Shown: piece by piece, positions 22,962 to 61,569 of the stretch
Layout: every line of letters begins with the position of its first letter
Position numbering within the stretch: the first letter of the stretch is position 1
NCBI GenBank assembly: GCA_045645965.1
Contig: JAZRJU010000006.1
Coordinates: 2,422-66,421 of the forward strand
From: Bacteroidaceae bacterium
Lineage (GTDB): Bacteria; Bacteroidota; Bacteroidia; Bacteroidales; Bacteroidaceae
Reading direction: 5' to 3'
Length of the DNA stretch: 64,000 nucleotides
Translations under genes and position numbers: made by a program
Notes under the pieces: generated by a model
What the model saw: only the letters and a program-made list of their open reading frames with translations
Database searches by the model: none
What the model was told of the DNA's origin: nothing

Positions 22962-23166
22962 GACCCCTCCCCGAACCCTCCCACAGGGGGAGGGAGTATG
23001 ATGTACTGGGGAATAGGGATTTTTTAATGAGGTTATTTGTTCTTTTCTATTTTGCTGTTCTCGGAGTAGTCTGAGTAATCTGAGTAATCTGAGTTTTCCG
23101 TTGTTTGTCTGGTGAGTGTTAGTTGTAACTACTCCCCGCCCTATAGGGAGGGGTTGGGGGTGGGTC
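22962..23166. repeat. RepB inverted pair bracketing the purA / alkD-like spacer
   Basis: GACCCCTCCCCGAACCCTCCCACAGGGGGAGGGAGTA (22962-22998) and TACTCCCCGCCCTATAGGGAGGGGTTGGGGGTGGGTCC (23130-23166). The spacer holds CTGAGTAAT x2.5 and a RepA fragment. Confidence 0.85.
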
Positions 23167-23737
23167 CTTCCATTGCTTCCAGTGTCTGCATCACTGCTTT
23201 GCGCAGGTATAGGGGTGCGTTGGCGGAGAGGGCCGCAGCATGGTCGCGCAGTTCTGCTTCGGAACGGGGCATGAGCCTGTTGCCCTGGCGGAGCAGGCGG
23301 CAGATGGTGAGCCAACCGCAGAGCGAGGCAAGTTCATGTGTGCCTGCTATCCAACGGAAGGCCATGTCGGTGGCCCAGGGCTGGGGTGAGATGAGTTCCA
23401 TGGCCAGAAGCGACACCGCCTCGGGTGTGCGGGCCTCGTGAACCCAGATGTCTGCCACCTCGGGCAGGAACTCCTGTGGGGGAGTGAGCAGTATGCCCAG
23501 CAACTGGCTCTCGCGCACGTTCTCCGCCCATAGACGTTGGCCAAGACGGCGGTTGCGGGGGAACTCGGCGGCGATGTTCCTGAGTCGGGGCAACTCTATG
23601 CCCCACACCACATGGTGAGGCATGCCGCCACGGCGCATCTGCGAGGAGGCAATGCCGTTCATGTTGGCACGCAACTCCTTTTTTATATTACGGATGGTTT
23701 CGTCCATCCAGTTTGTGTCAATTGTATTCTCTTCCAT
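23141..23737 (-). CDS. DNA alkylation repair (AlkD-like HEAT/ARM repeat) protein
   Basis: Start at MEENTIDTNW. The sequence matches the DNA_alkylation family by my recollection. The last 8 codons and the TAG stop lie inside RepB. Confidence 0.72.
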   Translation of the reverse strand: MEENTIDTNWMDETIRNIKKELRANMNGIASSQMRRGGMPHHVVWGIELPRLRNIAAEFPRNRRLGQRLWAENVRESQLLGILLTPPQEFLPEVADIWVHEARTPEAVSLLAMELISPQPWATDMAFRWIAGTHELASLCGWLTICRLLRQGNRLMPRSEAELRDHAAALSANAPLYLRKAVMQTLEAMEGPTPNPSL

Positions 23738-25679
23738 ATCTGAGCATCTGCTGGTCGAAGGTCTCGTCGTAGGACACGCCAACGTCCGTGACCTTGCCGT
23801 CAGTGTCTGTTACAAGTGTGTATCGGGGGTTTATGAAACCCTTGTAGGGAGCCAGGTCCAGAGCCTCGTAGCGCTGGAGCACCTCCTGGTGCAGGGTGCT
23901 GTCCACCTCCACGCCATACTTCTCCACCAGATGCTTGGCGGCCAAGGTGTCGCCCTCGCTCTTGATGCGCTGTATCTCGGCCAGCAGTTGGCCTATGAAC
24001 TGGCGCAGGGTGGGGTAGTCGTGGATGACCAGGCGTGTCTTGCCATCTTTCCTGACAAGTTCCATGGCAGGTATGGTGCCAAAGACCTGTGCCCAATATG
24101 TGGACTGCTCCAGGCACCAGTGCGCTATGAGGGCACGGTTGCGCATGTGCGCCTCCTCTATGTGGCATCCGGGCTTGATGCGCACGAGTTGCGTCATCAG
24201 ACCGTTGAGCATGTAGGTGTAGTAGTTGCTATGCCATGCATCCAGGGTGGGAGTGAGCCCCAGCTGGTGCATCTTCTGGTCGGCAATGTAGTAGAGGGCG
24301 AAGAGGTCGGCACGTGTCTCCTCGATGGTACTGCCATGCACGCCAAGGGCATCGGCATCCACGCCGGGCAAGAGTTGTCCCGAACCATGTCCGAGGCACT
24401 CGTGCAGGTCGGTATGCAGGTCGTCCAACTGGTGAGCATAGAGGTTTACCTGCTCCAGCACCTTGGCATCGGGGATGAACTCCTGGCGGAACCCATTGCC
24501 CTGCGCAGCCTGGTCGTAAGCCTCGGTGAGGTTGCCTATGGTAACGCTCTTGCTTCCGTATACGGAACGCACCCAGTTGCTATTGGGCAGGTTGATGCCT
24601 ATGGCAGAACTGGGATAGAGGTCGCCACCCAGAATGGCAGCCTGCACCACACGCGCGGTGACACCCTTGCATTCCTTCTTCTTGAAACGAGGGTCCACAG
24701 GGCTGTTGTCCTCGAACCACTGCGCATTCTGGCTGAGTATCTCGGTGCGGCGTGTTGCCTCGCGGTCCAGTATGTTCACATAACCCTCCCACGAAGCCTT
24801 CAGGCCCAGAGGGTCGCCATATACTTCGGTGAAGCCGTTGACGAAGTCCACCGTGCCCTCCACCTCGGAAATCCATTGGATGGTGTACTGGTCGAAGGTG
24901 TCCAGCGAACCGGTGCGGTAGAACTGGAGCAGAAGCGAGATAACCTCTCTCTGCCTGTCCGTCTCGGCAAACTCCATGGCCTTCTCCAGATGCGAGCAGA
25001 TGCGCTCTATCTGTCGCCCGTAGAGCCCTGTGGAGGAATATATGTTCTCGTACAGATTGCCCTCGGCATCCCTTTCCAGACGGCTGTTCATGCCGTACAT
25101 GACAGGCTGGTCGGGCAGGGGAGCGGAAGCCTTCTGCTGGGCATAGAACTGCTCTGCCTCGTGCTGTGTGACACCCTCGCCATAGTAGTTGCATGCCGAG
25201 GCAAGCAAGAGGTCGTCGCCGCTCTGGCACACACGCTTGGGCATGACGGAGGGGTTGGTGATAACCTCGGCAAGGCGCTCGAACTCTTCGGCCCCAACCA
25301 CGGGAGAAGGAATGGCACGGTATGCCTGGCCAAGCCACTCGGCAGAGAAGGCAGGCAGGAACTTGTCCGTGCTATAGTGATGATGTATGCCGTTGGCAAA
25401 CCACACCTGCCGCAGGTAGGTGAGGAAAGCCTCCCAGTCCTTGCCCTCGTGCACTATGGCCGAGTTCTGCAGGATGTCCTCCAGCAGACGGCGGATGGCC
25501 AGGTTGTGGCGGCAGTTCTGGTCCCACAGGATGTCGCGTCCGCACAAGGAAGCCTCCGCCAGGTGGTAGACATACTGCTTCTGCCCCAGGCTCAGGTCCT
25601 GGAAGGCAGGCACACGGTAGCGCAGCAGCTGTATGTCGGCAAAGCGCACCTGGGCGTATGTGAAGGTGTTATTCTTCAT
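23718..25679 (-). CDS. dipeptidyl-peptidase III (M49 family)
   Basis: Zinc motifs HECLGH and EETRAD (the family's second EExxAx zinc motif). Start at MKNNTFTYAQ. It overlaps the AraC stop by 11 nt and the AlkD-like start by 20 nt. Confidence 0.88.
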   Translation of the reverse strand: MKNNTFTYAQVRFADIQLLRYRVPAFQDLSLGQKQYVYHLAEASLCGRDILWDQNCRHNLAIRRLLEDILQNSAIVHEGKDWEAFLTYLRQVWFANGIHHHYSTDKFLPAFSAEWLGQAYRAIPSPVVGAEEFERLAEVITNPSVMPKRVCQSGDDLLLASACNYYGEGVTQHEAEQFYAQQKASAPLPDQPVMYGMNSRLERDAEGNLYENIYSSTGLYGRQIERICSHLEKAMEFAETDRQREVISLLLQFYRTGSLDTFDQYTIQWISEVEGTVDFVNGFTEVYGDPLGLKASWEGYVNILDREATRRTEILSQNAQWFEDNSPVDPRFKKKECKGVTARVVQAAILGGDLYPSSAIGINLPNSNWVRSVYGSKSVTIGNLTEAYDQAAQGNGFRQEFIPDAKVLEQVNLYAHQLDDLHTDLHECLGHGSGQLLPGVDADALGVHGSTIEETRADLFALYYIADQKMHQLGLTPTLDAWHSNYYTYMLNGLMTQLVRIKPGCHIEEAHMRNRALIAHWCLEQSTYWAQVFGTIPAMELVRKDGKTRLVIHDYPTLRQFIGQLLAEIQRIKSEGDTLAAKHLVEKYGVEVDSTLHQEVLQRYEALDLAPYKGFINPRYTLVTDTDGKVTDVGVSYDETFDQQMLRYGREYN

Positions 25680-26127: not shown

Positions 26128-28650
26128 TTAAAGTCCAAGTTCTATTTTCAGCCTTGCTATCTGCATCATCACATCGCGCAGGGCCGTTTCCTGTTGTTCT
26201 ATCTGTGTTTCGGTTATAATCTGCTTTTCGGTAAGCTGGCTATTGGTCATACTGCCCGTGTCCACTTCCAGTGCAATGATTTCCGACTGTATGGCCTTCA
26301 CCCTCTGTTGTTGCAATGAGGTGGCAAGACGGTTGTCGCGAATGCGGCGGCGCTTCTCGTTCCAGTCGATGTTCTGCGTGAGCACGGCATTGAGTTCGGC
26401 ATATTGCACGGGAGGGTTGTTGGCATTGTATGCTCTTATCCACAGGTCCACGAGGTTGCGCTGTGCGCTGGTCTTCTGGTCCAGGCTGTCGCCGAACCTG
26501 CGTGCGTATGAATAGGCACCCTCCCTGTCTTTCTGTTCCAGTGCCAGGACCTGAAGGTTTTCGGCACACTGAGCGTGCTCACGCTGAGCCTTGTAGTAGG
26601 CATTGAGCGAGCGGTCCAGAGCCTCGCCCGTACTCATGTCGGGCAGCAGCAGCTGGCGGCGCTCGTGCAGTTCGCTATATTTGCTTCTTTGCTGTCTTGC
26701 CTCGTCGTTGATGCCCTCAATGCCCGCCTGGCACTGTTGCAGCATCGTCTGGTACATCTCCTTCCTGATGCATGCCTCTGCCATGTTGCGGTCTATGTCG
26801 GCAATGCTCCGGTTGACGAGCTTCCAGTCCGAGGCCATCTGCCTGATGTCCAGATAGAGGTTTTCGGCATTATGCTGCCATTGCTTGAACCACTCCGGGA
26901 TGGAAATCTCCTTTTGCAGGAGTTCGTAGAGGTTGTGATACTTCTCCTGGGCCAGCTTGCGCGACTCGTCCAGGCGGTCGCTTTGGGCAGCGAGTATGGT
27001 GCATAGCGACTTTGCCTCGTTGGTGCGTGCGCTGATTTCTGCCTTCTTGGTCTCCAGTTGGGCAATCTTGCCAGAAAGGTTGGTAATCTGTGTGGTGTGG
27101 TAGTTGAACTCGCCCAGTTCTGCCTCGGCGCTCTGCAGGTCGCGCTGTGCATTGTCCTGCAGCTGCCGTATGGTGGCCATGCGTGCATCGCTGTCGGTGC
27201 TGGCCGAACAGTCGTAGAACGTGGGGTCCAGTTGTGCAAACACCCTCCACTCCTTCACGTCCTCGCTTTGTCTGAGGCGCACCACCTCCAGGTTCTTCTG
27301 TTCGGCAATCTGCTGGCCCAGGTTCTGCGTCAGCTTGTCATGCAGTATGGCCAGCTGCTTCTCCTGTCCCTGCAGTTCACCGGAGAGAGTCTCGTAGTCG
27401 CTTCGGAAGTCGCTGATGAGCTTGTACTGGTCCTGCATCGTGTCGCTATGGTAGGGATGATGCGTGGCGCCGCACACGGAGCACGCCGTTCCCTCCACCA
27501 GGTCGGCTCTCAGGTTTATGAGGTTCTGGCTCTTGCTCATGTTCAGCGAGTACTCCTTGTCGGCCACCTGGCGCTTCAGCGTGCTTACCACGATGGTCAG
27601 TTCCTGTTCGGCCTTCAGGTCGTGCTCTATCTCCAGCCGGAGCGAGTTGATGAGCTGTGTCTTCTCCTCTATGTTCGCGTATCCCGTGCTGATGCGCCTC
27701 CACAGGCTCTGTGCGGCAGAGAGCATGAGCATGCGGCTCTTCAGCTTCATCACACGCTCCTGTACATCGTAGCTCTGCATGCCACGGATGTTGGTGCGGT
27801 GAATCTCTGCCTCGTCCTGCAGGGTCTGTATCTGCTGGTCTATCTCGTTCTGCTGGGCTATGATGCGAGCCAGGTCTTCGCCAGCTCTCATCTGCTCCTC
27901 CGAGTTCTTGGTGTACTGGCCGTTCCTGCGTTTGAGGTTTTCGGACAGTTCCTCCAGCCTCTGCAGCATGCCCAGTATCAGTTCCGAGCGTTCCAGCATG
28001 GACTCGTGGCTTTTCAGCACGTGCAGCTTGCTGTTCTGCTTCTCCAGGTTTTTCTCCAGTTCGGCTATGATGGCGTTCTGTGCTGAAATGTGGCTCTCCA
28101 GGCTCTTCTTCCGGTCTTCCTCCACGCCCAGGGCCAGCTGCAGGCGTCTGCTCTGCTCCTCTATGATGGCGCATGCACCGTCGTGCTGGCTGCATTCCTC
28201 CACTATGCGGCAGAGGTCCTGGTGCTGTGTTTCGGTGAGCTTGATGTTGTCGCGGCTGGTGGTGAAGTGCTTGCGCAGTTCCTCAATGTCGTTGCCCACC
28301 TTGCGTATCTGCTGTTCCAGGTCTATGCCGGCACGCCGGTTTTCCTCGGCCTCGTCCTCGAGCAGCTGCATCCTCAGGAAGGGAGCCATGATGCTCTCGA
28401 AGGTCTCGAAGCGGTCCATCTCCGTTGCCTCGTCCGATATGGAGGCAAATTCCTTGTTCAGCACAAAGAGCTGCCTGGTGTTGATGTCCAGTTCGGAATT
28501 CAGTTGCTGGTGGCGGTATAGTTTTTCCTGTAGCGAGCGCAGACGCTTGATGTTCTCCTCTATGTTCTGCTGGCGGCTCTGTGCCAGGCGGAGAGTGTCC
28601 CTCAGGCGTTGGTGCTGGGCGCTGGTTATATCTGGATTGTTGGAATTCAT
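26128..28650 (-). CDS. SbcC/Rad50-like coiled-coil protein with a central CxxC zinc hook, no ATPase head
   Basis: 840 aa, heptad-rich throughout. CSVCGATHHPY at aa 390-400 (codons for CSVC at 27472-27483) resembles the SbcC hook CPLCGSxxHP. No Walker A, signature or Walker B motif is seen. Confidence 0.75.
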   Translation of the reverse strand: MNSNNPDITSAQHQRLRDTLRLAQSRQQNIEENIKRLRSLQEKLYRHQQLNSELDINTRQLFVLNKEFASISDEATEMDRFETFESIMAPFLRMQLLEDEAEENRRAGIDLEQQIRKVGNDIEELRKHFTTSRDNIKLTETQHQDLCRIVEECSQHDGACAIIEEQSRRLQLALGVEEDRKKSLESHISAQNAIIAELEKNLEKQNSKLHVLKSHESMLERSELILGMLQRLEELSENLKRRNGQYTKNSEEQMRAGEDLARIIAQQNEIDQQIQTLQDEAEIHRTNIRGMQSYDVQERVMKLKSRMLMLSAAQSLWRRISTGYANIEEKTQLINSLRLEIEHDLKAEQELTIVVSTLKRQVADKEYSLNMSKSQNLINLRADLVEGTACSVCGATHHPYHSDTMQDQYKLISDFRSDYETLSGELQGQEKQLAILHDKLTQNLGQQIAEQKNLEVVRLRQSEDVKEWRVFAQLDPTFYDCSASTDSDARMATIRQLQDNAQRDLQSAEAELGEFNYHTTQITNLSGKIAQLETKKAEISARTNEAKSLCTILAAQSDRLDESRKLAQEKYHNLYELLQKEISIPEWFKQWQHNAENLYLDIRQMASDWKLVNRSIADIDRNMAEACIRKEMYQTMLQQCQAGIEGINDEARQQRSKYSELHERRQLLLPDMSTGEALDRSLNAYYKAQREHAQCAENLQVLALEQKDREGAYSYARRFGDSLDQKTSAQRNLVDLWIRAYNANNPPVQYAELNAVLTQNIDWNEKRRRIRDNRLATSLQQQRVKAIQSEIIALEVDTGSMTNSQLTEKQIITETQIEQQETALRDVMMQIARLKIELGL

Positions 28651-28669: not shown

Positions 28670-28677
28670 CAAAGATA
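28670..28677 (-). promoter_or_regulatory. -7 box TATCTTTG for the coiled-coil operon
   Basis: Read on the minus strand. The box ends about 20 nt upstream of the ATG at 28650. Confidence 0.6.
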
Positions 28678-28784: not shown

Positions 28785-28792
28785 TATCTTTG
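28785..28792 (+). promoter_or_regulatory. -7 box TATCTTTG for hisS
   Basis: About 46 nt upstream of the ATG at 28838. Confidence 0.6.
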
Positions 28793-30428: not shown

Positions 30429-32054
30429 ATGAAAAAGATATTTAGGAAGGTGAGCATGTTTCTGCTCATGATGTCTATGCCGGTAAGTATTGCGCTTACA
30501 GGTTGTTGCGAGGAATCAACAACTGCCCCTGAGTCCAAGGAAAAGTACAACATTATCCTTATTACTACCGATCAGGAAGCCTATATGCCGACTTTCCCTC
30601 AGGAGAGCAATTATGAAGCCAGGGAGCGTTTGCGTAGCTTGGGCACCACGTTTGAGAAACATTATGCATGCTCCAATGTGTCCACTTCTTCTCGTTCGGT
30701 GATGTACACAGGTCGCCATGTGACGGAAACCAAAATGCTTGACAATACCAATCTGGTTTTCCAACCTGATATGGATACTAATATCAAGACCGTGGGCGAT
30801 ATGATGACCGAGGCTGGATACTATGCCGCCTACAAGGGAAAGTGGCATATCTCCCGTCATGAGGATTCGTTGGAGGAGTATGGATTCAAGGACTGGACGG
30901 AGGGCAATATATATGGCTCCGTGTGGGAGGGTTTCCATGCCGATAGCACCATTGCTGCCAGGGCATGTGAATGGCTCACCACCATAGGTGTGGAAAGGAA
31001 CCAAAGCGGACAACCCTTCTTCCTGGCTGTGAACTTTATCAATCCTCATGATATCATGTATTTCTGTGAGAGTGAGAAGACCGGTTCCTTTGGCTCAGCC
31101 ACAGCTCCCGATGCTCCCGTCTACAAGAAAAAGTATCCATCAGTGCCTGTGCCTGCCTCATGGAACGAATCTTTGAGTAAGGCCGGCCGTCCTTCGGCTC
31201 ATTTTCAGTATCAGAAGGGTTGGGATTTAGTAACTGGCGAGTCGCCCAATACCGAGGAAGAGTGGCGTACTTTCCGCGACTATTATTTCAATTGCATCCA
31301 GGACTGCGACAACCAAATGAATCGTCTGTTGGACCACATTCAGGAATTGGGATTGATGGAGAATACCATCATTGTGTACACTTCTGACCATGGTGAGATG
31401 ATGGGCGAGCATTGCATGAAGGGCAAGGGAGGCAATATATATGAGAATAACATCCATGTGCCTCTGGTTATATATCATCCTGACTATGAGGGTGGCAGAA
31501 GTTGCCAGAGTGTTACTTCCCATCTTGATCTTGCTTCCACATTTGTGGATATGGCAACAGACAATGCCAGTGATGCCAATCGCATAAAGGCAGGAGTGGT
31601 GGGCTACAGTCTTATGGAGGCCATGCAAAACACCGATGCTCCCATGCGAAACCAGGAAGGCGCACTCTTTGTATATGATATGATTTCCATGATGGATGAC
31701 GACCCTGAAGTGAAACCTCATCCCAATGGTGAACTGGAATTGCACGTGGATCTCAATAATCGTGGTTATCTGCGTGGTATTATCACTCAGGACTATAAGT
31801 TCGCCCGCTACTTCTCTCCGCTTCATTTCAATACTCCAACGGATGTGGAAAGCCTCTATGAGAACAACGATGTGGAACTCTATGCCATGGGTACGTCCGA
31901 GTGTGACAATCTGGCACATCCAAAGGGTAATAACCCGGAGCTTGTGGAGGCCTATAATAGGAAACTTAACAACATAATAAGCAGGGAGATAGGAGTGGAC
32001 GACGGACGAGAAACCAGTAACTTCATTGATGGTATAGAGAATTATGGCAAATAA
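30429..32054 (+). CDS. sulfatase (S1 family), Ser-type with atypical S-T-S-S-R maturation motif
   Basis: LITTDQ metal site, STSSRSVMYTGRH in place of (C/S)xPxRxxxxTG, GKWH, TSDHGEMMGEH. Confidence 0.88.
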   Translation: MKKIFRKVSMFLLMMSMPVSIALTGCCEESTTAPESKEKYNIILITTDQEAYMPTFPQESNYEARERLRSLGTTFEKHYACSNVSTSSRSVMYTGRHVTETKMLDNTNLVFQPDMDTNIKTVGDMMTEAGYYAAYKGKWHISRHEDSLEEYGFKDWTEGNIYGSVWEGFHADSTIAARACEWLTTIGVERNQSGQPFFLAVNFINPHDIMYFCESEKTGSFGSATAPDAPVYKKKYPSVPVPASWNESLSKAGRPSAHFQYQKGWDLVTGESPNTEEEWRTFRDYYFNCIQDCDNQMNRLLDHIQELGLMENTIIVYTSDHGEMMGEHCMKGKGGNIYENNIHVPLVIYHPDYEGGRSCQSVTSHLDLASTFVDMATDNASDANRIKAGVVGYSLMEAMQNTDAPMRNQEGALFVYDMISMMDDDPEVKPHPNGELELHVDLNNRGYLRGIITQDYKFARYFSPLHFNTPTDVESLYENNDVELYAMGTSECDNLAHPKGNNPELVEAYNRKLNNIISREIGVDDGRETSNFIDGIENYGK

Positions 32055-33222
32055 CGAAGACAAACGTCATTATTCCATTATAGTAAAACCAGTAGGCGCG
32101 GCGTGCAATATGCGTTGCGCCTATTGCTATTATTTGGGTAAGGCACATGAGGGCGAAACGCCTGTTATGACAGATGAGGTACTGCGCAAATATGTCAGTG
32201 AAACCATTGCCATTCATGGTTCCGAAGCCGAAATAGAATTTGCCTGGCATGGTGGAGAACCCCTTATGGCTGGAATGGCATTTTATGAAAAGGCATTGGC
32301 CTTGCAGAGGGAATATGGCACAGGCAGGAGGATATTGAACACCTTGCAGACGAACGGTACCTTGCTAAACGATGAGTGGTGCCGATTCTTCAGGGACAAT
32401 AAGTTCCGCATAGGCATAAGTCTGGACGGACCGGAGCATCTGCACAATGCATTCAGAAAGGATGCGCAAGGCAACGGGACTTTCCATCAGGTAATGCGTG
32501 GTGTGGAACTGCTCCGCAAGCATGAGGTGGAGTATAATGTGCTTGCTACGGTAAACTCGGTAAATGTGCATCATCCTCTGGAAGTGTATCAATTCCTTCG
32601 TACGGTGTCCGATTATATCCAATTCCTGCCGGTAGTGGAGTGCTCCGGCGATGAGGCCAATGTGGCACAACCTCCTGGAGTGTATTCCGCCTCCCAGAGT
32701 GCCGTGCCACATGAGGCCCATTTTAATGTTTCTGCCGAAGGCTATGGAGAGTTCTTGTGCCGAATCTTCGATGAATGGGCACGGCATGATATAGGAAAGA
32801 AGTTTGTACAGATTTTTGAAGCAGCAATAGGCAATATCATGCGCAGGCCTGCAGGATTGTGTGTCCATGAGGGTGTATGCGGACATTGTGCCGCCATAGA
32901 GCGCGGAGGCAATGTCTATCGGTGCGACAGGTATGTCTTCCCCGATTATCTTATGGGTAATATCATGCACGATTCATTGTATGAGATGATGCAAGGTAAC
33001 CGTCAGTTTGGTGAGCACAAACTGGAATCGCTATCCACGGAATGCCTGCATTGCGATGTGGTAGACCTCTGCTTTGGTGGTTGTCCCAAGGACAGGTTCA
33101 TTCCTGTGCAATCTCCAGGGCAAGGAAAGGAGTATCAAAACTACCTTTGCCCAGGCTATAGGAAGTTTTTCCGTTATGTAAGGGAGAGAGTGAGGAGAGG
33201 GGAAAGGAGAAATGAGAAATGA
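32044..33222 (+). CDS. anaerobic sulfatase-maturating enzyme (radical SAM/SPASM)
   Basis: CNMRCAYCYY (Cx3Cx2C) and C-terminal Cys-rich SPASM clusters. It overlaps the sulfatase by 11 nt. Confidence 0.9.
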   Translation: MANNEDKRHYSIIVKPVGAACNMRCAYCYYLGKAHEGETPVMTDEVLRKYVSETIAIHGSEAEIEFAWHGGEPLMAGMAFYEKALALQREYGTGRRILNTLQTNGTLLNDEWCRFFRDNKFRIGISLDGPEHLHNAFRKDAQGNGTFHQVMRGVELLRKHEVEYNVLATVNSVNVHHPLEVYQFLRTVSDYIQFLPVVECSGDEANVAQPPGVYSASQSAVPHEAHFNVSAEGYGEFLCRIFDEWARHDIGKKFVQIFEAAIGNIMRRPAGLCVHEGVCGHCAAIERGGNVYRCDRYVFPDYLMGNIMHDSLYEMMQGNRQFGEHKLESLSTECLHCDVVDLCFGGCPKDRFIPVQSPGQGKEYQNYLCPGYRKFFRYVRERVRRGERRNEK

Positions 33223-33530
33223 GAAATGAGAAATCTGCAAGTAAGCGAGAGCAATCAACCGACGCAGGAGCGAACGCAGAATCAACCGACGCAGGAGTGA
33301 GCGCAGAATCAAACTTGTTTGAATTATGCCGAGCGACAAGGAGGAAAACAATAGTTAAGTTTGTTTGAATTATGCTGAGCGACAAGGAGGAAAACAATAG
33401 TTAAACTTGTTTGAATTGCCGAACCGACGCTCGAAACAAGAGCAGAGAAAGCTTGCTTGCTATGCGGTGAACGGTGAGTCCGTTTTCTCCTTTCTCCTTT
33501 CTCCTTTAATCCCGCTCACCGTTCTCTAAT
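33205..33530. repeat. RepG mosaic tandem-repeat tract (7-bp x3, 27-bp x2, 45-bp x2.4, CTCCTTT runs)
   Basis: GAGAAAT x3 (33214-33234, includes the anSME stop). AATCAACCGACGCAGGAGyGArCGCAG x2 (33253-33306). A 45-nt unit x2 plus a partial copy (33313-33420). TCTCCTT x3 lies near the uvrB stop. Confidence 0.85.
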
Positions 33531-35542
33531 CCCTCCAGCATGTTCATCATGCGCAACATCTCGTCGCGAAGCTGGGCGGCAAGGGTGAAGTCCAGTTTCT
33601 TAGCGGCCTCCTGCATGCGTTTGCGTGTGGTGTCGATGGCTTTCTTGAGCTGCTGGGGCGTCATGGCATCGATGATGGGATCTGCCACCTTCATGCTTGG
33701 GGTCTCCACCTCCACATAGGCACGCTTGTCGCCAATCTCCTTCTGTATTTCAAGCAGGTTGGTCATGGTGCGAGCCTTCTGTATCTGTGTGGGTGTGATG
33801 CCATGCTCCATGTTGTAGCGCATCTGTTTCTCGCGCCGGCGCTCCGTCTCCTCGATGGTCTTTTGCATGGAACCGGTCATGTTGTCGGCATAGAAGATGG
33901 CCAGGCCGTTGAGATTTCGTGCCGCACGGCCAATGGTCTGCGTCAGGCTTCGGTAGCTGCGCAGAAAACCTTCCTTGTCGGCATCCAGTATGGCCACGAG
34001 CGACACCTCCGGAAGGTCTAGACCCTCGCGAAGAAGATTGACACCCACGAGCACGTCGTACACGCCGCTTCGCAAGGCATCCATGATGCGTATGCGCTCC
34101 AGTGTGTCCACGTCGGAATGGATGTAGGTGGTCTTAATGCCATGCCTCAGGAGGTACTCCGATAGTTCCTCTGCCATGCGCTTGGCTATGGTTGTGACGA
34201 GTACACGCTCGTTGCGCTCCACCCTCTGCTGTATCTCCTCCATGAGGTCGTCTATCTGGTTCTTGGACGGGCGCACCTCTATCCTTGGGTCGAGCAGGCC
34301 TGTGGGACGTATAAGTTGCTCTACCACAACTCCCTCGCTCTTCTCCAGTTCGTAGTCGGCAGGTGTGGCGGAGACGTATATGGTCTGTGGGGTGAGTTCC
34401 TCAAACTCGTTGAACTGAAGCGGACGGTTGTCCTTGGCGGCTGGCAGGCGGAAGCCGTATTCCACCAGGTTCTTCTTGCGTGCCTGGTCGCCACCGTACA
34501 TGGCGCCTATCTGAGGGATGGACTCATGGCTTTCGTCCACAACGAGCAGGAAGTCGTCGGGGAAGAAGTCCAGAAGGCAATAGGGTCTCTGTCCAGGCTG
34601 GCGTCCATCGAAATATCTTGAATAGTTCTCTATGCCCGAGCAGTGCCCGAGTTCGCGAATCATCTCAATGTCGTAGCGCACACGCTCCTCCAGGCGCTTT
34701 GCCTCGAAGGTTTTGCCTATTTCCGTGAAATACTGCACCTGTGCCTCCAGGTCTTCCTCGATCTGTCGGATAGCCGCCTCCTGCGTGTCCTTGCTGGTCA
34801 TGAACAGGTTGGCAGGGTAGATGCGGTAGTCCTGAAACGAAGTGTGCGCCTGCATGCTCTGAGGGTCCAGTTCCTGTATGGACTCTATCTCGTCGTCCCA
34901 GTAGGTGACCCTCAGCACCGTGTCGGCATAAGCCAGCCAGATGTCCACCGTATCGCCTATGGCACGCACGTCGCCACGGTTGGGCGTGACATCGTTGCGC
35001 ACATATAGCGCCGCTATGAGTTTGCGCAGGAGATTGTTGCGGTCAAGGCGCTGTCCCACGCGGATATCTATGCTGTTCTCGCTCAGGGTGAGCGGGTTGC
35101 CCATACCGTAGATGCATGACACGGAACCCACCACGATGACATCCTTCCTGCCCGAGAGCAGGGCAGAGGTGGCGGCCAGTCGCAACTTGTCTATCTCGGC
35201 ATTGATGGCCAGGTCCTTCTCTATGTAGGTGTCCGTGCTGGGGATGTATGCCTCGGGCTGGTAGTAGTCGTAGTAGGAGACATAATACTCCACGGCGTTC
35301 TTGGGGAAGAACTGCTTCATCTCGCCATAGAGCTGGGCGGCAAGTGTCTTGTTGTGCGAGAGTATGAGCGTGGGCTTGCCTATGTTGGCGATGACGTTTG
35401 CAATGGTAAATGTCTTGCCGCTGCCCGTTACGCCAAGCAGCACCTGGGCTGGTGTTCCGCTCAGCACTCCGTCGGTCAGTTGGCGTATCGCCTCGGGCTG
35501 GTCGCCGGTGGGGTGGAATTGGGATGTCAGTTCGAAGTTCAT
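33506..35542 (-). CDS. uvrB: excinuclease ABC subunit B
   Basis: Start at MNFELTSQFHPTGDQPEAIRQL, Walker A GVTGSGKT, C-terminal UVR domain. Confidence 0.95.
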   Translation of the reverse strand: MNFELTSQFHPTGDQPEAIRQLTDGVLSGTPAQVLLGVTGSGKTFTIANVIANIGKPTLILSHNKTLAAQLYGEMKQFFPKNAVEYYVSYYDYYQPEAYIPSTDTYIEKDLAINAEIDKLRLAATSALLSGRKDVIVVGSVSCIYGMGNPLTLSENSIDIRVGQRLDRNNLLRKLIAALYVRNDVTPNRGDVRAIGDTVDIWLAYADTVLRVTYWDDEIESIQELDPQSMQAHTSFQDYRIYPANLFMTSKDTQEAAIRQIEEDLEAQVQYFTEIGKTFEAKRLEERVRYDIEMIRELGHCSGIENYSRYFDGRQPGQRPYCLLDFFPDDFLLVVDESHESIPQIGAMYGGDQARKKNLVEYGFRLPAAKDNRPLQFNEFEELTPQTIYVSATPADYELEKSEGVVVEQLIRPTGLLDPRIEVRPSKNQIDDLMEEIQQRVERNERVLVTTIAKRMAEELSEYLLRHGIKTTYIHSDVDTLERIRIMDALRSGVYDVLVGVNLLREGLDLPEVSLVAILDADKEGFLRSYRSLTQTIGRAARNLNGLAIFYADNMTGSMQKTIEETERRREKQMRYNMEHGITPTQIQKARTMTNLLEIQKEIGDKRAYVEVETPSMKVADPIIDAMTPQQLKKAIDTTRKRMQEAAKKLDFTLAAQLRDEMLRMMNMLEGLENGERD

Positions 35543-35546
35543 TCTA

Positions 35547-35554
35547 CAAATGTA
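35547..35554 (-). promoter_or_regulatory. -7 box TACATTTG only 4 nt before the uvrB ATG (near-leaderless)
   Basis: The minus strand reads GTACATTTGTAGAATG. Confidence 0.4.
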
Positions 35555-35671
35555 CGTTTTTCCTGCCGTATGGACAAGCAAACCGTGTGCTTTGCTCCAT
35601 AAAAAGCCTTAAAACGCATGCTGCCGAAGAAATAAAAGCGCAACGATGGAGGGTTCTTCATGTTTTTTTTG

Positions 35672-58101: not shown

Positions 58102-59028
58102 ATGGAAAAGATTATCGGACTTATTGATGCGCCATTCACCCCTTTCTATGCAAATGGCGATGTGAACTTGGAACCCATTCCCGCATATGCCGCCATGTTG
58201 CAGAAGAACGGCATGAAGGGTGTATTTATAAACGGAAGCAGCGGTGAGGGCTACATGCTCACCGAGGAAGAGCGCATGCGCCTGGCAGAGGCTTGGGTAG
58301 AGGCCGCCAAGGCATTGCCTGGCGAGTTCAAGGTGATAGTACATGTTGGTTCTTGCTGCGTGCGCAACTCTCGCATGCTGGCAGAGCACGCTCAGAAGAT
58401 AGGTGCATGGGGCATCGGTGCCATGGCACCTCCATTCCCCAAGATTGGACGTATCGAGGAACTCGTAAAGTATTGCGAGGAGATTGCTGCCGGTGCTCCC
58501 GAGTTACCTTTCTACTACTACCACATCCCAGCCTTCAATGGTGCATTCCTGCCCATGGTGAAGTTGCTCGAGGCTGTTGATGGCCGCATTCCCAACTTTG
58601 CCGGTATCAAGTACACCTACGAGAGCATCTACGAATACAACCAGTGCCGACTGTATGCTGGTGGCAAGTTCGACATGCTTCACGGTCAGGACGAAACCAT
58701 CCTGCCCTCACTGGCCATGGGCGGTGCACAGGGCGGTATTGGCGGTACCACCAACTACAACGGTGTGAACCTCGTGGGCATCATTGATGCATGGAACGAG
58801 GGCAATCTGGAGAAGGCACGCGAGTTGCAGAACTTCTCTCAGGAGGTTATCAACGTAATTTGCCATTTCCGTGGCAACATCGTGGGTGGCAAGCGTATCA
58901 TGAAGCTCATTGGCCTTGACCTCGGTCCCAACCGCACACCGTTCCAGAACCTCACCCAGGAGGAGGAGAATGCTATGCGTGCCGAACTGGAGGCAATCAA
59001 CTTCTTCGAGCGTTGCAACAAGTTCTAA
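58102..59028 (+). CDS. nanA: N-acetylneuraminate lyase (DHDPS/NanA family)
   Basis: 308 aa. GVFINGSSGEGYMLT and the K in FAGIKYT as Schiff-base lysine. Sialic-acid gene context. Confidence 0.85.
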   Translation: MEKIIGLIDAPFTPFYANGDVNLEPIPAYAAMLQKNGMKGVFINGSSGEGYMLTEEERMRLAEAWVEAAKALPGEFKVIVHVGSCCVRNSRMLAEHAQKIGAWGIGAMAPPFPKIGRIEELVKYCEEIAAGAPELPFYYYHIPAFNGAFLPMVKLLEAVDGRIPNFAGIKYTYESIYEYNQCRLYAGGKFDMLHGQDETILPSLAMGGAQGGIGGTTNYNGVNLVGIIDAWNEGNLEKARELQNFSQEVINVICHFRGNIVGGKRIMKLIGLDLGPNRTPFQNLTQEEENAMRAELEAINFFERCNKF

Positions 59029-59046: not shown

Positions 59047-61569
59047 ATGAAGAAGTTACTGTTCTTATTATTTGTGCTCTGTCCCTTGCTATGCTTGGGA
59101 CAGAACCGTGTTTCTGTCTCTGCCACTCCTCCCATGCGAGATGCCGTCTCCGGGCATTATGCTGGTTGGATAAAGGGGCAGTTATGGACTTGGGGCGGAT
59201 GCAACTTTCCCGATGTGCCTTGTGCCGATGGCGGAGAGAAGAAATACTATCCCATTGCTTATGGCGCCAGTGTGCCAGTGCCCGGTGGTGTTGCCATATT
59301 GGGCGGAACGGATGGTATCACCTCGTTCGACAAGTGCGGTTTCTATAGCGCCAGCGACAGGAACTATGCCGAGATAGCACCTCTGCCAAAGGGCTTGGAC
59401 AACTTTGCCGCTACCTATCACGACGGTATGTTGTGGGTGGCAGGCGGTCAGTGCCAGGGTGTGCCCAACAAGGAAGTATACTCTCTTCCTTGGCCCGGTG
59501 ATGCCAAGGAATGGACATTGGCTGCCACCTTGCCCGACGAGTGCCGTCTGCAGCCCTGCGTTGCGGTACAGGGTACTGCCAAGGGCAATTGCCTGTTCGT
59601 ATTTGGCGGCTATCAGTCAAAGAATGATTCTTTAGGTCTTGCACCAGCAGTGCACACCGATGGTGTGTATATGTCCATAGCAGAACTGAAGAAGGGTGGG
59701 GCAGACGCTTCCCTGTGGAAACGCACTTCTCCTGCTTCTGTGTGGGTTGACAACACCCAGGATGGAGGTCGCGAACTTTGTCGCCAGGCCATTGTGGGAA
59801 GTACCAGCACGTCTATTGGATACAGTCATGTGGCTTTCTTCGGAGGTGTTGATTTTGAGATATTCCTCAGCGCCATACAGGGCCGTCAGGACAGCCTCTA
59901 TCTGCGCCACGAACCCGAATGGTACCGTTTCCGCAAGGATGTGCTCACCTATCACACCATTACCGATGCATGGGGCCTGCTCCCCGGTGACAGCCTGCTG
60001 GCAAGAGCCGGTGCATGCCTCACTCCCGAGGTGGGAGGAACCGGTTGGAGTTATAGCGGTGGTGAACTGATGCCTGGTGTGCGCAGTGCCGATGTGACAC
60101 ATGTGGAGGTGACCAACGAGAAGAACTTCGGCTGGCTCAACTGGACAGTGCTTGCCTTCTACCTCTTGGCTATGCTCGGTATGGGTTTCTACTTCATGCG
60201 CAAGGAAAGCGGTGCAGACGACTTCTTCAAGGGAGGCGGCCGCATTCCATGGTGGGCTGCTGGTATCAGCATCTATGCCACCATGCTTTCTGCCATCACT
60301 TACATGACCATTCCAGCCAAGGCATATACTACCGACTGGACGTACTATCCCATGTTGTGGATGATTCTGCTTATCAGTTTCCCTGTGATAAAGTACTATC
60401 TGCCCTATTTCCGCAAACTGAACGTAACCAGTGCCTACGAGGTGTTGGAGCAGCGCTTCAACCTGGCAACACGCCTGCTGGCATCGTTCCTCTTCTGTGT
60501 GTTCATGATAGTGCGCATGGCCATGGTGCTTTATCTGCCCTCTTTGGCTCTGACGGCTGTAACTGGCATTGACATCTACCTGTGCATTGTGCTCATGGGT
60601 CTTATCACCATCATCTATTGCACCATGGGCGGTGTGGAAGCCGTCATCTGGGGCGATGTGGTGCAGGGCCTTATCCTGGTTGGCGGTGCCATCTTTGCCG
60701 TAATTTATCTGGCGGTGAACACCGAAGGCGGTGTGATGGGATGCATAGACATCGCACTGGAGAACGATAAGCTGCGCCTCTTCGACTGGAGCAACTCATG
60801 GTCGCAAGCCACATGGTGGGTTATCATCATTGGCGGCTTGGCCAACAACCTCATCTCCTATACCTCCGACCAGACGGTTATCCAGCGTTTCATGACCACT
60901 CCCGACGAGAAGTCTGCCGGTCGTGGTATCCTGGTGAACGGTCTTATGAGCGTGTTCGTGTCCGTGGCATTCTATATGATAGGTACGGGTCTCTATACGT
61001 TCTATAAGACGCACCCCACCGAGTTGGATGTAACCATGGGTCAGTCGGATGCCATCTTCCCCTTCTTCATGATGAGCCAGATGCCTGCCGGTGTTGCCGG
61101 TGCACTCATTGCGGCTATCTTTGCCGCCACCATGAGTACTATTTCCAGCAATATCAACAGTGTGTCTACGGCCTTCTCCATCGACTTCTGGAAACGCTTC
61201 CGTCCCAGCACCACCGACCATCAGTTGTTGGGTGTGGCACGTTGGAGTTCCATGCTCAGCGGTTTGATAGGTTTGGTTCTGGCACTCTTCATGGCAACAT
61301 GGAATGTCCAGTCCTTCCTCGATTTCTTCAATAGCGCCTTGGGCCTGCTCACCAGCGGTTTGGGCGGACTCTTCTTCATGGCGGTGTTCATGAAACGTGT
61401 CAAGGGCTATGCTGCACTCATTGGTTTCGTTGCCGGCGAGGCGGTGGTATTCTGGATGAGCGAATGCACCGATGCCAACCTCTTCCTGTTCGGTGCCACG
61501 GGTATCGTAGTGAGCGTGGTGGTGGCATGGATTCTCTCATTGGGTTCCTATGTGAAGAGCAGTAAATAA
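59047..61569 (+). CDS. fusion: periplasmic cyclically-permuted mutarotase (NanM-like Kelch propeller) plus sodium:solute symporter
   Basis: Signal peptide plus about 350 aa of Kelch-like repeats, then an SSS core (FFKGGGRIPWWAAGISIYATMLSAITYM...). Confidence 0.85.
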   Translation: MKKLLFLLFVLCPLLCLGQNRVSVSATPPMRDAVSGHYAGWIKGQLWTWGGCNFPDVPCADGGEKKYYPIAYGASVPVPGGVAILGGTDGITSFDKCGFYSASDRNYAEIAPLPKGLDNFAATYHDGMLWVAGGQCQGVPNKEVYSLPWPGDAKEWTLAATLPDECRLQPCVAVQGTAKGNCLFVFGGYQSKNDSLGLAPAVHTDGVYMSIAELKKGGADASLWKRTSPASVWVDNTQDGGRELCRQAIVGSTSTSIGYSHVAFFGGVDFEIFLSAIQGRQDSLYLRHEPEWYRFRKDVLTYHTITDAWGLLPGDSLLARAGACLTPEVGGTGWSYSGGELMPGVRSADVTHVEVTNEKNFGWLNWTVLAFYLLAMLGMGFYFMRKESGADDFFKGGGRIPWWAAGISIYATMLSAITYMTIPAKAYTTDWTYYPMLWMILLISFPVIKYYLPYFRKLNVTSAYEVLEQRFNLATRLLASFLFCVFMIVRMAMVLYLPSLALTAVTGIDIYLCIVLMGLITIIYCTMGGVEAVIWGDVVQGLILVGGAIFAVIYLAVNTEGGVMGCIDIALENDKLRLFDWSNSWSQATWWVIIIGGLANNLISYTSDQTVIQRFMTTPDEKSAGRGILVNGLMSVFVSVAFYMIGTGLYTFYKTHPTELDVTMGQSDAIFPFFMMSQMPAGVAGALIAAIFAATMSTISSNINSVSTAFSIDFWKRFRPSTTDHQLLGVARWSSMLSGLIGLVLALFMATWNVQSFLDFFNSALGLLTSGLGGLFFMAVFMKRVKGYAALIGFVAGEAVVFWMSECTDANLFLFGATGIVVSVVVAWILSLGSYVKSSK

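Follow-up and report, generated by a model that had tools for sequence, protein, structure and literature searches.

SbcC is the ATPase subunit of SbcCD, a nuclease that acts on hairpins and DNA ends. It has long been asked what the very long arms and the hook of Rad50 and SbcC do beyond positioning the heads, and most work on this question has used engineered truncations. Headless SMC and Rad50 hook/coiled-coil fragments, which combine an arm with a dimerization module, have reportedly been engineered and used in vitro. The hook of Rad50 is described as a constitutive and persistent dimerization module (PMC6969161). Reuse of a zinc-hook coiled coil outside the classical SbcCD complex is represented by RloC, an ABC ATPase and anticodon nuclease which keeps both ATPase and nuclease domain (PMC2610378). 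Here, we characterize a gene encoding an SbcC-like coiled-coil arm with a central zinc hook and neither of these domains. It lies on a 64,000-nucleotide stretch of DNA from a Bacteroidaceae bacterium (assembly GCA_045645965.1, contig JAZRJU010000006.1, positions 2,422 to 66,421), referred to as the window. The original prediction for this stretch, made from its sequence, had named the gene product a headless SbcC/Rad50 and left the strand of the gene, which is the minus strand, unstated.

The arm gene is an intact open reading frame with an ATG start whose product is an acidic protein of 840 residues (97.5 kDa, isoelectric point 5.5). Guanine-cytosine content around the gene is 0.55-0.56, similar to that of adjacent housekeeping genes, and fits the host-like composition noted earlier. 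Walker A, the SGG/LSGGE signature and the hhhhDE Walker B motif were all missing from the arm protein in regular-expression searches, Walker A also when its pattern was relaxed, and Pfam returned zero matches at E ≤ 1, AAA_23, AAA_29 and SbcC_Walker_B included. Both results agree with the absence of the three ATPase motifs claimed in the original prediction. The SMC_hinge and SMC_N domains of Pfam were not found in the protein either, and its apex bears a CxxC hook instead. In NCBIfam, only SMC and Rad50 models matched, weakly and through coiled coil, with scores far under their cut-offs, and PDB searches with the arm sequence or a family profile yielded nothing past generic coiled-coil matches. 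Searches for head and nuclease genes covered the window and ~6 kb around 80 headless loci. With the heads of E. coli SbcC and of a headed relative, P0170, as tblastn queries, no SbcC head was detected in these regions; the lone window match was an ordinary ABC-transporter ATPase at ~12.7-12.9 kb. SbcD-like sequence was absent from the same regions, and sbcD does not adjoin the arm gene.

The connection to SbcC was established with a profile built from 17 headless proteins and searched exhaustively against 1.84 billion representatives. Headless-type proteins recovered in this search were 836-940 residues long. The profile also matched residues ~210-1070 of proteins of 1205-1290 residues (E 1e-147 to 1e-42). 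Compared with the headless profile, these headed relatives have ~220 extra N-terminal residues carrying AAA_23/AAA_29 and ~185 extra C-terminal residues carrying SbcC_Walker_B, and most of the profile-matched proteins of ~1250 residues have intact SbcC heads. In the case of P0170, the headed relative examined in detail, the match spans residues 227-1067 (E 1.2e-133). This protein carries AAA_23 and SbcC_Walker_B, it scores best in NCBIfam against exonuclease subunit SbcC (1.6e-92, under the curated cut-off), its heads are 41-46% identical to those of E. coli SbcC, and directly upstream lies sbcD, whose product scores above the TIGR00619 cut-off. Names were available for three carriers of the active form: Alloprevotella rava, Alloprevotella sp. 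and Prevotellamassilia timonensis. Headless proteins start where the coiled coil exits the N-terminal head and end ~25-40 residues short of the C-terminal head. Given this match along the full length of the arm, the reading as a headless SbcC rests on homology and not on resemblance alone, and we consider it highly probable that the arm gene descends from sbcC. By this comparison, the lineage has lost the two halves of the ATPase head as well as the adjoining sbcD, and the arm and zinc hook are left.

Among described proteins, the Alloprevotella/Prevotellamassilia-type SbcC (~1250 residues; P0170, Alloprevotella rava WP_183694923.1) has an arm of ~840 residues that is homologous throughout and shares the hook CP/SVCGATHHPYH as well as the joint residues W317, W468, D475, R490, W587, N742, W763 and R767. 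The window protein lacks the ~220 N-terminal residues that form the Walker A half of the ATPase and the ~185 C-terminal residues that form the signature/Walker B/H-loop half, and its gene is located not in an sbcD-sbcC operon but elsewhere, beside hisS. E. coli SbcC (1048 residues) resembles the arm protein in hook sequence and predicted antiparallel coiled-coil architecture; it differs in having the ATPase, a nuclease partner and an arm of roughly 650 residues compared with ~840, and direct similarity between the two arm sequences is undetectable. Existing records call headless proteins either hypothetical or, in some JGI records, SbcCD ATPase subunit. Both labels are inaccurate: since the head and operon features of SbcC are missing, an annotation as ATPase subunit is unsuitable.

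A word-indexed search yielded 268 family homologues, of which the listed full-length members have 801-944 residues and no Pfam domain in any listed. Scanning a single genome for each GTDB species by motif gave 243 relatives. The best 80 of these 243, from which details were taken, were all headless-type and came from Bacteroidaceae/Prevotellaceae metagenome-assembled genomes of gut or rumen origin, some labelled Paraprevotella; the closest, from a Bacteroidaceae metagenome-assembled genome, was 97% identical. As to the earlier question of whether orthologues are always headless, these best 80 are, and full-length headed relatives exist as well. Hundreds of species, with identities as low as ~31%, retain the 2.5-kb frame uninterrupted and at constant length, and pairwise ratios of nonsynonymous to synonymous substitution rates (dN/dS) between the window gene and its orthologues were 0.08-0.18. 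Signs of a pseudogene, that is frame disruption or dN/dS near 1, were found neither in the window gene nor in its orthologues. By these measures the arm gene is under purifying selection, in line with the earlier argument that an intact frame speaks for maintenance and not decay. As judged from the alignments, the retention of hook, length and arm sequence in hundreds of homologues is a pattern far beyond chance. Engineered headless SMC and Rad50 fragments are laboratory constructs, whereas the arm gene is natural and kept by selection. In a neighbour-joining tree (819 arm columns, 100 bootstraps), the main headless clade including the window protein was monophyletic with a bootstrap value of 85/100. 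Truncation is a property of this whole clade and not of a single strain, a possibility that had been raised at the outset.

The headed relatives form a series with the headless proteins. A census of Walker A, signature and Walker B motifs, restricted to representatives of at least 830 residues, returned 34 active proteins with all three motifs, 2 with partial motif retention, 10 full-length proteins without any of the three, 3 stubs of 974-1049 residues and 67 headless proteins, some of the last class probably being truncated fragments (P0235, for example, retains Walker A). In dead heads the replacements differ per lineage, with FTISTER--MLDA, TASGGLPLPP and GKSVTGKK as examples at the Walker A position, and destruction extends to the signature, Walker B and H-loop. 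Dead SbcC/SbcD pairs were found in intact sbcD-sbcC operons (P0164/L087:6842-8011, P0213/L090:6772-7986 and P0176/L091:4737-6011). All three SbcDs upstream of these dead-head SbcCs have lost nuclease motif III (GNHD); motif II is missing in two of them, motif V in two and motif I in one. At a further locus, L092, an sbcD-like gene was called as two pieces. In active pairs, conservation was 0.53 for the N-terminal head, 0.25 for the arm and 0.61 for the C-terminal head, and head conservation is 2.2-2.5 times that of the arm. The corresponding values for dead pairs were 0.32, 0.24 and 0.28, the heads being conserved about as well as the arm, and among closely related dead pairs conservation of the arm equals or exceeds that of the heads. 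For the stub P0223, a frameshifted relic of the C-terminal head extends beyond the stop codon. The dead SbcCD pairs have the same conserved arm and hook as the window protein and have also given up catalysis; they keep degenerate heads and a degenerate SbcD, both of which the window protein has shed. In the tree, dead-head proteins were scattered among active ones, and further headless proteins (P0197, P0232 and P0219) fell outside the main clade, with neither hisS nor sbcD adjoining. This distribution suggests that inactivation and head loss occurred more than once.

The original prediction had placed the motif CSVCGATHHPY at residues 390-400, near the midpoint of the protein. This was confirmed, and the motif contains the sole CxxC of the protein. 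Across a conservation alignment of 50 family members with identities down to 32%, no variation was seen at the hook positions C, V, C, G, H, H, P and H. Alignment of the family hook with the E. coli SbcC hook (CPLCGSTSHP) by hhalign covered 34 residues with a probability of 79% and E 1.6e-5, the aligned stretches being RAQLQAGQPCPLCGSTSHPA in E. coli and LRADLVEGTACSVCGATHHPY in the arm protein. Nearly all headed, dead-head and headless relatives retain the C..CG...HP pattern, so the CxxC is near-invariant among homologues, the opposite of the lack of conservation that had been considered earlier as a ground for abandoning the prediction. The Pfam model for the Rad50 zinc hook (PF04423) gave no match to the arm protein at E ≤ 1 and none at E ≤ 0.001 in eight scanned relatives. 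This says nothing about the hook because the model also misses six relatives with recognizable SbcC heads.

A monomer model of the arm protein was computed with AlphaFold2 (AF2; mean predicted local distance difference test score, pLDDT, 84.9). It is helical over residues 5-836 except for the hook (374-398) and some short breaks, which bears out the description of the protein as heptad-rich from end to end. The helix breaks pair up symmetrically on either side of the hook (208-220 with 581-585, 287-291 with 473-485), and we infer that the two arm halves would pair in antiparallel orientation. The best Foldseek matches of the model were the arms of MukB, JetC, condensin, Smc5/6 and Rad50; these matches to SMC arms reflect common coiled-coil architecture only. 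Conservation within the family peaks around the hook (residues 280-520) and at both protein ends. We distinguish two joint patches, each beside or at an AF2 helix break, and a knob near the former head end. In 20 columns the same residue is found in at least 90% of both the active and the headless group. The hook columns are L380, R381, L384, E386, G387, C390, C393, G394, H398 and P399. The non-hook columns are L229 and W587, then A313 and W317 (patch 1), W468, D475 and R490 (patch 2), and N742, W763 and R767 (knob), the patch and knob residues being conserved in headed and headless groups alike. Several of the 20 columns lie at or beside the mirrored helix breaks. Per-column arm conservation in active and headless groups was correlated with r = 0.57. 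These matching positions indicate that the constraints on the arm are older than head loss and nearly unchanged. A subclade of longer proteins (P0081, P0087 and P0112; 916-938 residues) has a conserved N-terminal extension, '...EELARQWWKERYGESMPEEVSAWIKQLTRSEARR...', which is absent from the window protein and could be a lineage-specific docking peptide.

The explanation of these findings that we favour, with moderate confidence, is that the product is a non-catalytic, SbcC-derived coiled-coil rod dimerized by its zinc hook. Most likely, the arm protein works like the arm-and-hook module of SbcC. Mechanistically, the chain would fold back into an antiparallel coiled coil of ~55-60 nm, as estimated from ~390 residues per strand, and two chains would share one zinc ion at their CxxC hooks, as in Rad50 and SbcC, to give a long two-armed rod. 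Such a rod would need neither ATP nor nuclease chemistry to serve as a scaffold or tether and would probably act via the joint patches (residues 281-330 with 461-500, and 736-768), which appear to be older than head loss. We rate this hook-dimer scaffold mechanism as slightly better than an even bet. Several observations weigh against it. Gene context indicated no partner or process for the arm protein in the 85 related loci compared; the neighbourhood was weighed as a possible lead on function, but its conserved gene order resembles ordinary housekeeping synteny. The protein is acidic with modest basic patches, and direct DNA binding is not evident from this charge profile. The hook region has a pLDDT below 50 in the AF2 monomer, likely because zinc and a second chain are expected to complete the site. 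One or both hook cysteines are gone in the headless proteins P0141 and P0161, and hence the hook is not indispensable everywhere; these lineages may represent further decay or another dimerization route. Their hook remnants read NGTICGTTHHP and SRVVSGTVYNP. Finally, sister-group support for the main headless clade is just 35/100 and deep nodes of the neighbour-joining tree are weak.

Of the functions put forward in the original prediction, a scaffold or tether fits best. Cooperation with separately encoded heads is disfavoured by the order of losses in relatives, where ATPase and nuclease chemistry went before the heads did. Another of its proposals, a modulator of SbcCD, would have the headless arm pair via hook or arm with a co-resident active SbcC and tune or block the nuclease. 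Such pairing is conceivable given that hook and arm joints are near-identical in pattern to those of active SbcC from related genera, that active SbcC of 1250 residues is abundant in related Bacteroidaceae, and that Rad50 hooks are persistent dimerization modules (PMC6969161). We nevertheless regard it as unlikely: there is no active sbcCD in the window or within ~6 kb of the 80 headless loci, the named carriers of active SbcC belong to other genera (Alloprevotella and Prevotellamassilia), and dead-head SbcC shares an operon with dead SbcD, which points to inactivation of the whole system and not to a regulatory paralogue. Reconstitution of an active complex, in which the arm joins head halves and a nuclease made from separate genes elsewhere, seems very improbable to us. 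In its favour, the conserved arm ends (residues 20-100 and 730-800) would come together where the heads used to be and might offer a partner a docking site. However, a head-like open reading frame adjoins the gene in 0 of the 85 loci and none is present in the window, and in relatives the ATPase and nuclease motifs decay while still attached, as expected if catalysis was abandoned and not relocated. We also know of no precedent for a two-polypeptide head held non-covalently on a coiled coil, which further counts against such an arrangement.

The gene might also be a functionless remnant en route to loss, its frame open by chance or through read-through into a downstream operon. The loss of hook cysteines in two members, the stepwise decay of the system in other lineages and, in the window, an HTH_18 gene just 6 nt downstream would fit this idea. 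We consider it even less likely than a split complex and largely refuted, as the frame has stayed open at constant length over the range of divergence given above with low dN/dS, conservation is position-specific as in active SbcC, and the gene is intact even where the downstream block is inverted or split off by recQ. An unrelated cytoskeletal or SMC-like coiled coil with a CxxC by chance could account for the lack of a Pfam match, the generic PDB matches and the mere 34 residues aligned to E. coli SbcC by hhalign. We consider this reading refuted by the full-length arm matches to bona fide SbcC (E to 1e-147) with the hook in register. The SbcC-derived, hook-dimerized rod remains our preferred explanation.

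Coordinates of the gene, its parts and its immediate neighbours are given in Table 1. In most of the 85 loci, hisS is the divergent neighbour of the arm gene; the usual order past the arm gene is HTH_18, M49 peptidase, DNA-alkylation-repair gene and purA; the block from HTH_18 to purA is inverted in several loci. The AraC-type gene reported earlier immediately past the arm gene stop was recovered as this HTH_18 gene, which in the window is probably co-transcribed with the arm gene. As an obligate partner the HTH_18 protein was rejected: its gene stays with the block of M49 peptidase, alkylation repair and purA when this is inverted. An insert of ~2 kb separates the arm gene from the HTH_18 gene in ~13 loci (L033, L027, L029, L031, L036, L043, L052, L054, L057, L059, L060, L070 and L082). 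The one examined, in L033 (8532-10394, minus strand), is a gene for a 620-residue RecQ helicase convergent with the arm gene, and it showed no sign of anything beyond lineage synteny. The promoter-like box predicted upstream of the start codon was also found, with a spacing of 19 nt. In 75 of the 85 loci, a TAnnTTTG box, which we take to be the consensus that marks Bacteroidetes promoters, occurs at a distance of up to 70 nt before the start, mostly 18-23 nt upstream. The octamer of the window is also present on the plus strand at 28785-28792, 45 nt upstream of the hisS ATG, so it seems that two -7 boxes of Bacteroidetes type, in divergent orientation, lie in the 187-nt intergenic region between hisS and the arm gene. 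The arm gene is a core chromosomal gene that is maintained and probably expressed.

Table 1. Positions in the window of the arm gene, the parts of its product and neighbouring elements (residue numbers refer to the arm protein).
Feature	Positions	Strand	Basis
Coiled-coil arm gene, very probably SbcC-derived, with zinc hook at its centre but without ATPase head halves	26128..28650	minus	open reading frame and translation
N-terminal ascending arm helices (predicted), residues 5-373	27532..28638	minus	AF2 helices 5-207, 211-219, 221-286, 292-373
Joint patch 1, residues 281-330, '...QERVMKLKSR..LSAAQSLWRRISTGYANIEEKT'	27661..27810	minus	conservation peak beside AF2 helix break
Hook motif C390-S-V-C393-G-A-T-H-H-P-Y-H401, arm apex	27448..27483	minus	sole CxxC; hhalign to E. 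coli SbcC
C-terminal descending arm helices (predicted), residues 399-836	26143..27456	minus	AF2 helices 399-472, 486-580, 586-667, 673-743, 762-797, 802-836
Joint patch 2, residues 461-500, 'SEDVKEWRVFAQLDPTFYDCSASTDSDARMATIRQL', predicted to face patch 1 in the hairpin	27151..27270	minus	conservation peak; AF2 break 473-485
Knob near former head end, residues 736-768, 'LWIRAYNANNPPVQYAEL....DWNEKRR'	26347..26445	minus	family conservation; AF2 short helices/loops 744-761
Putative -7 promoter box TATCTTTG, Bacteroidetes-type	28670..28677	minus	sequence; 19 nt upstream of ATG
Neighbouring gene for HTH_18/AraC-type DNA-binding protein, 150 residues	25669..26121	minus	Pfam HTH_18 1.1e-13; 6 nt past arm gene stop

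The region holds several DNA-repair genes, none of which adjoins the arm gene. A DNA-alkylation-repair gene lies on its downstream side at 23141-23782, and uvrB (33506-35581, minus strand) and uvrA (41090-43909, plus strand) are within ~15 kb. A second open reading frame of 840 residues (59047-61569, plus strand) proved unrelated and encodes a fusion of a NanM-type Kelch domain (N-acetylneuraminate epimerase) with a sodium:solute symporter. Together with the DHDPS-family, lyase-like gene beside it (58102-59028, plus strand), it probably forms a module for sialic-acid uptake and utilization. A sulfatase gene (30429-32054, plus strand) overlaps a radical-SAM/SPASM gene (32044-33222, plus strand) by 11 nt, and the product of the latter is probably an anaerobic sulfatase-maturating enzyme.

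In the literature searched, coverage of which is incomplete, we found no description of a natural headless or catalytically dead bacterial SbcC, SbcD or Rad50. The proteins described here provide a natural separation-of-function series within one family, consisting of active SbcCD, full-length but dead SbcC with dead SbcD, stubs and head-free arms, the last fixed in a large clade of gut and rumen bacteria. As the heads deteriorate, constraint on arm and hook persists. This implies that the arm can be a direct target of selection, and on its own it seems to have a useful role. More tentatively, and with somewhat less than even confidence, we propose that the arm and hook of SbcC/Rad50 have a function of their own, free of ATP and nuclease chemistry, that may already have been present in the ancestral SbcCD of Bacteroidales; several lineages would then have inactivated or dropped the enzyme independently and kept the arm, and a large Prevotella/Paraprevotella-type clade would run on the rod without SbcCD activity. 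The series supplies concrete proteins and conserved patches with which to search for partners of the arm.

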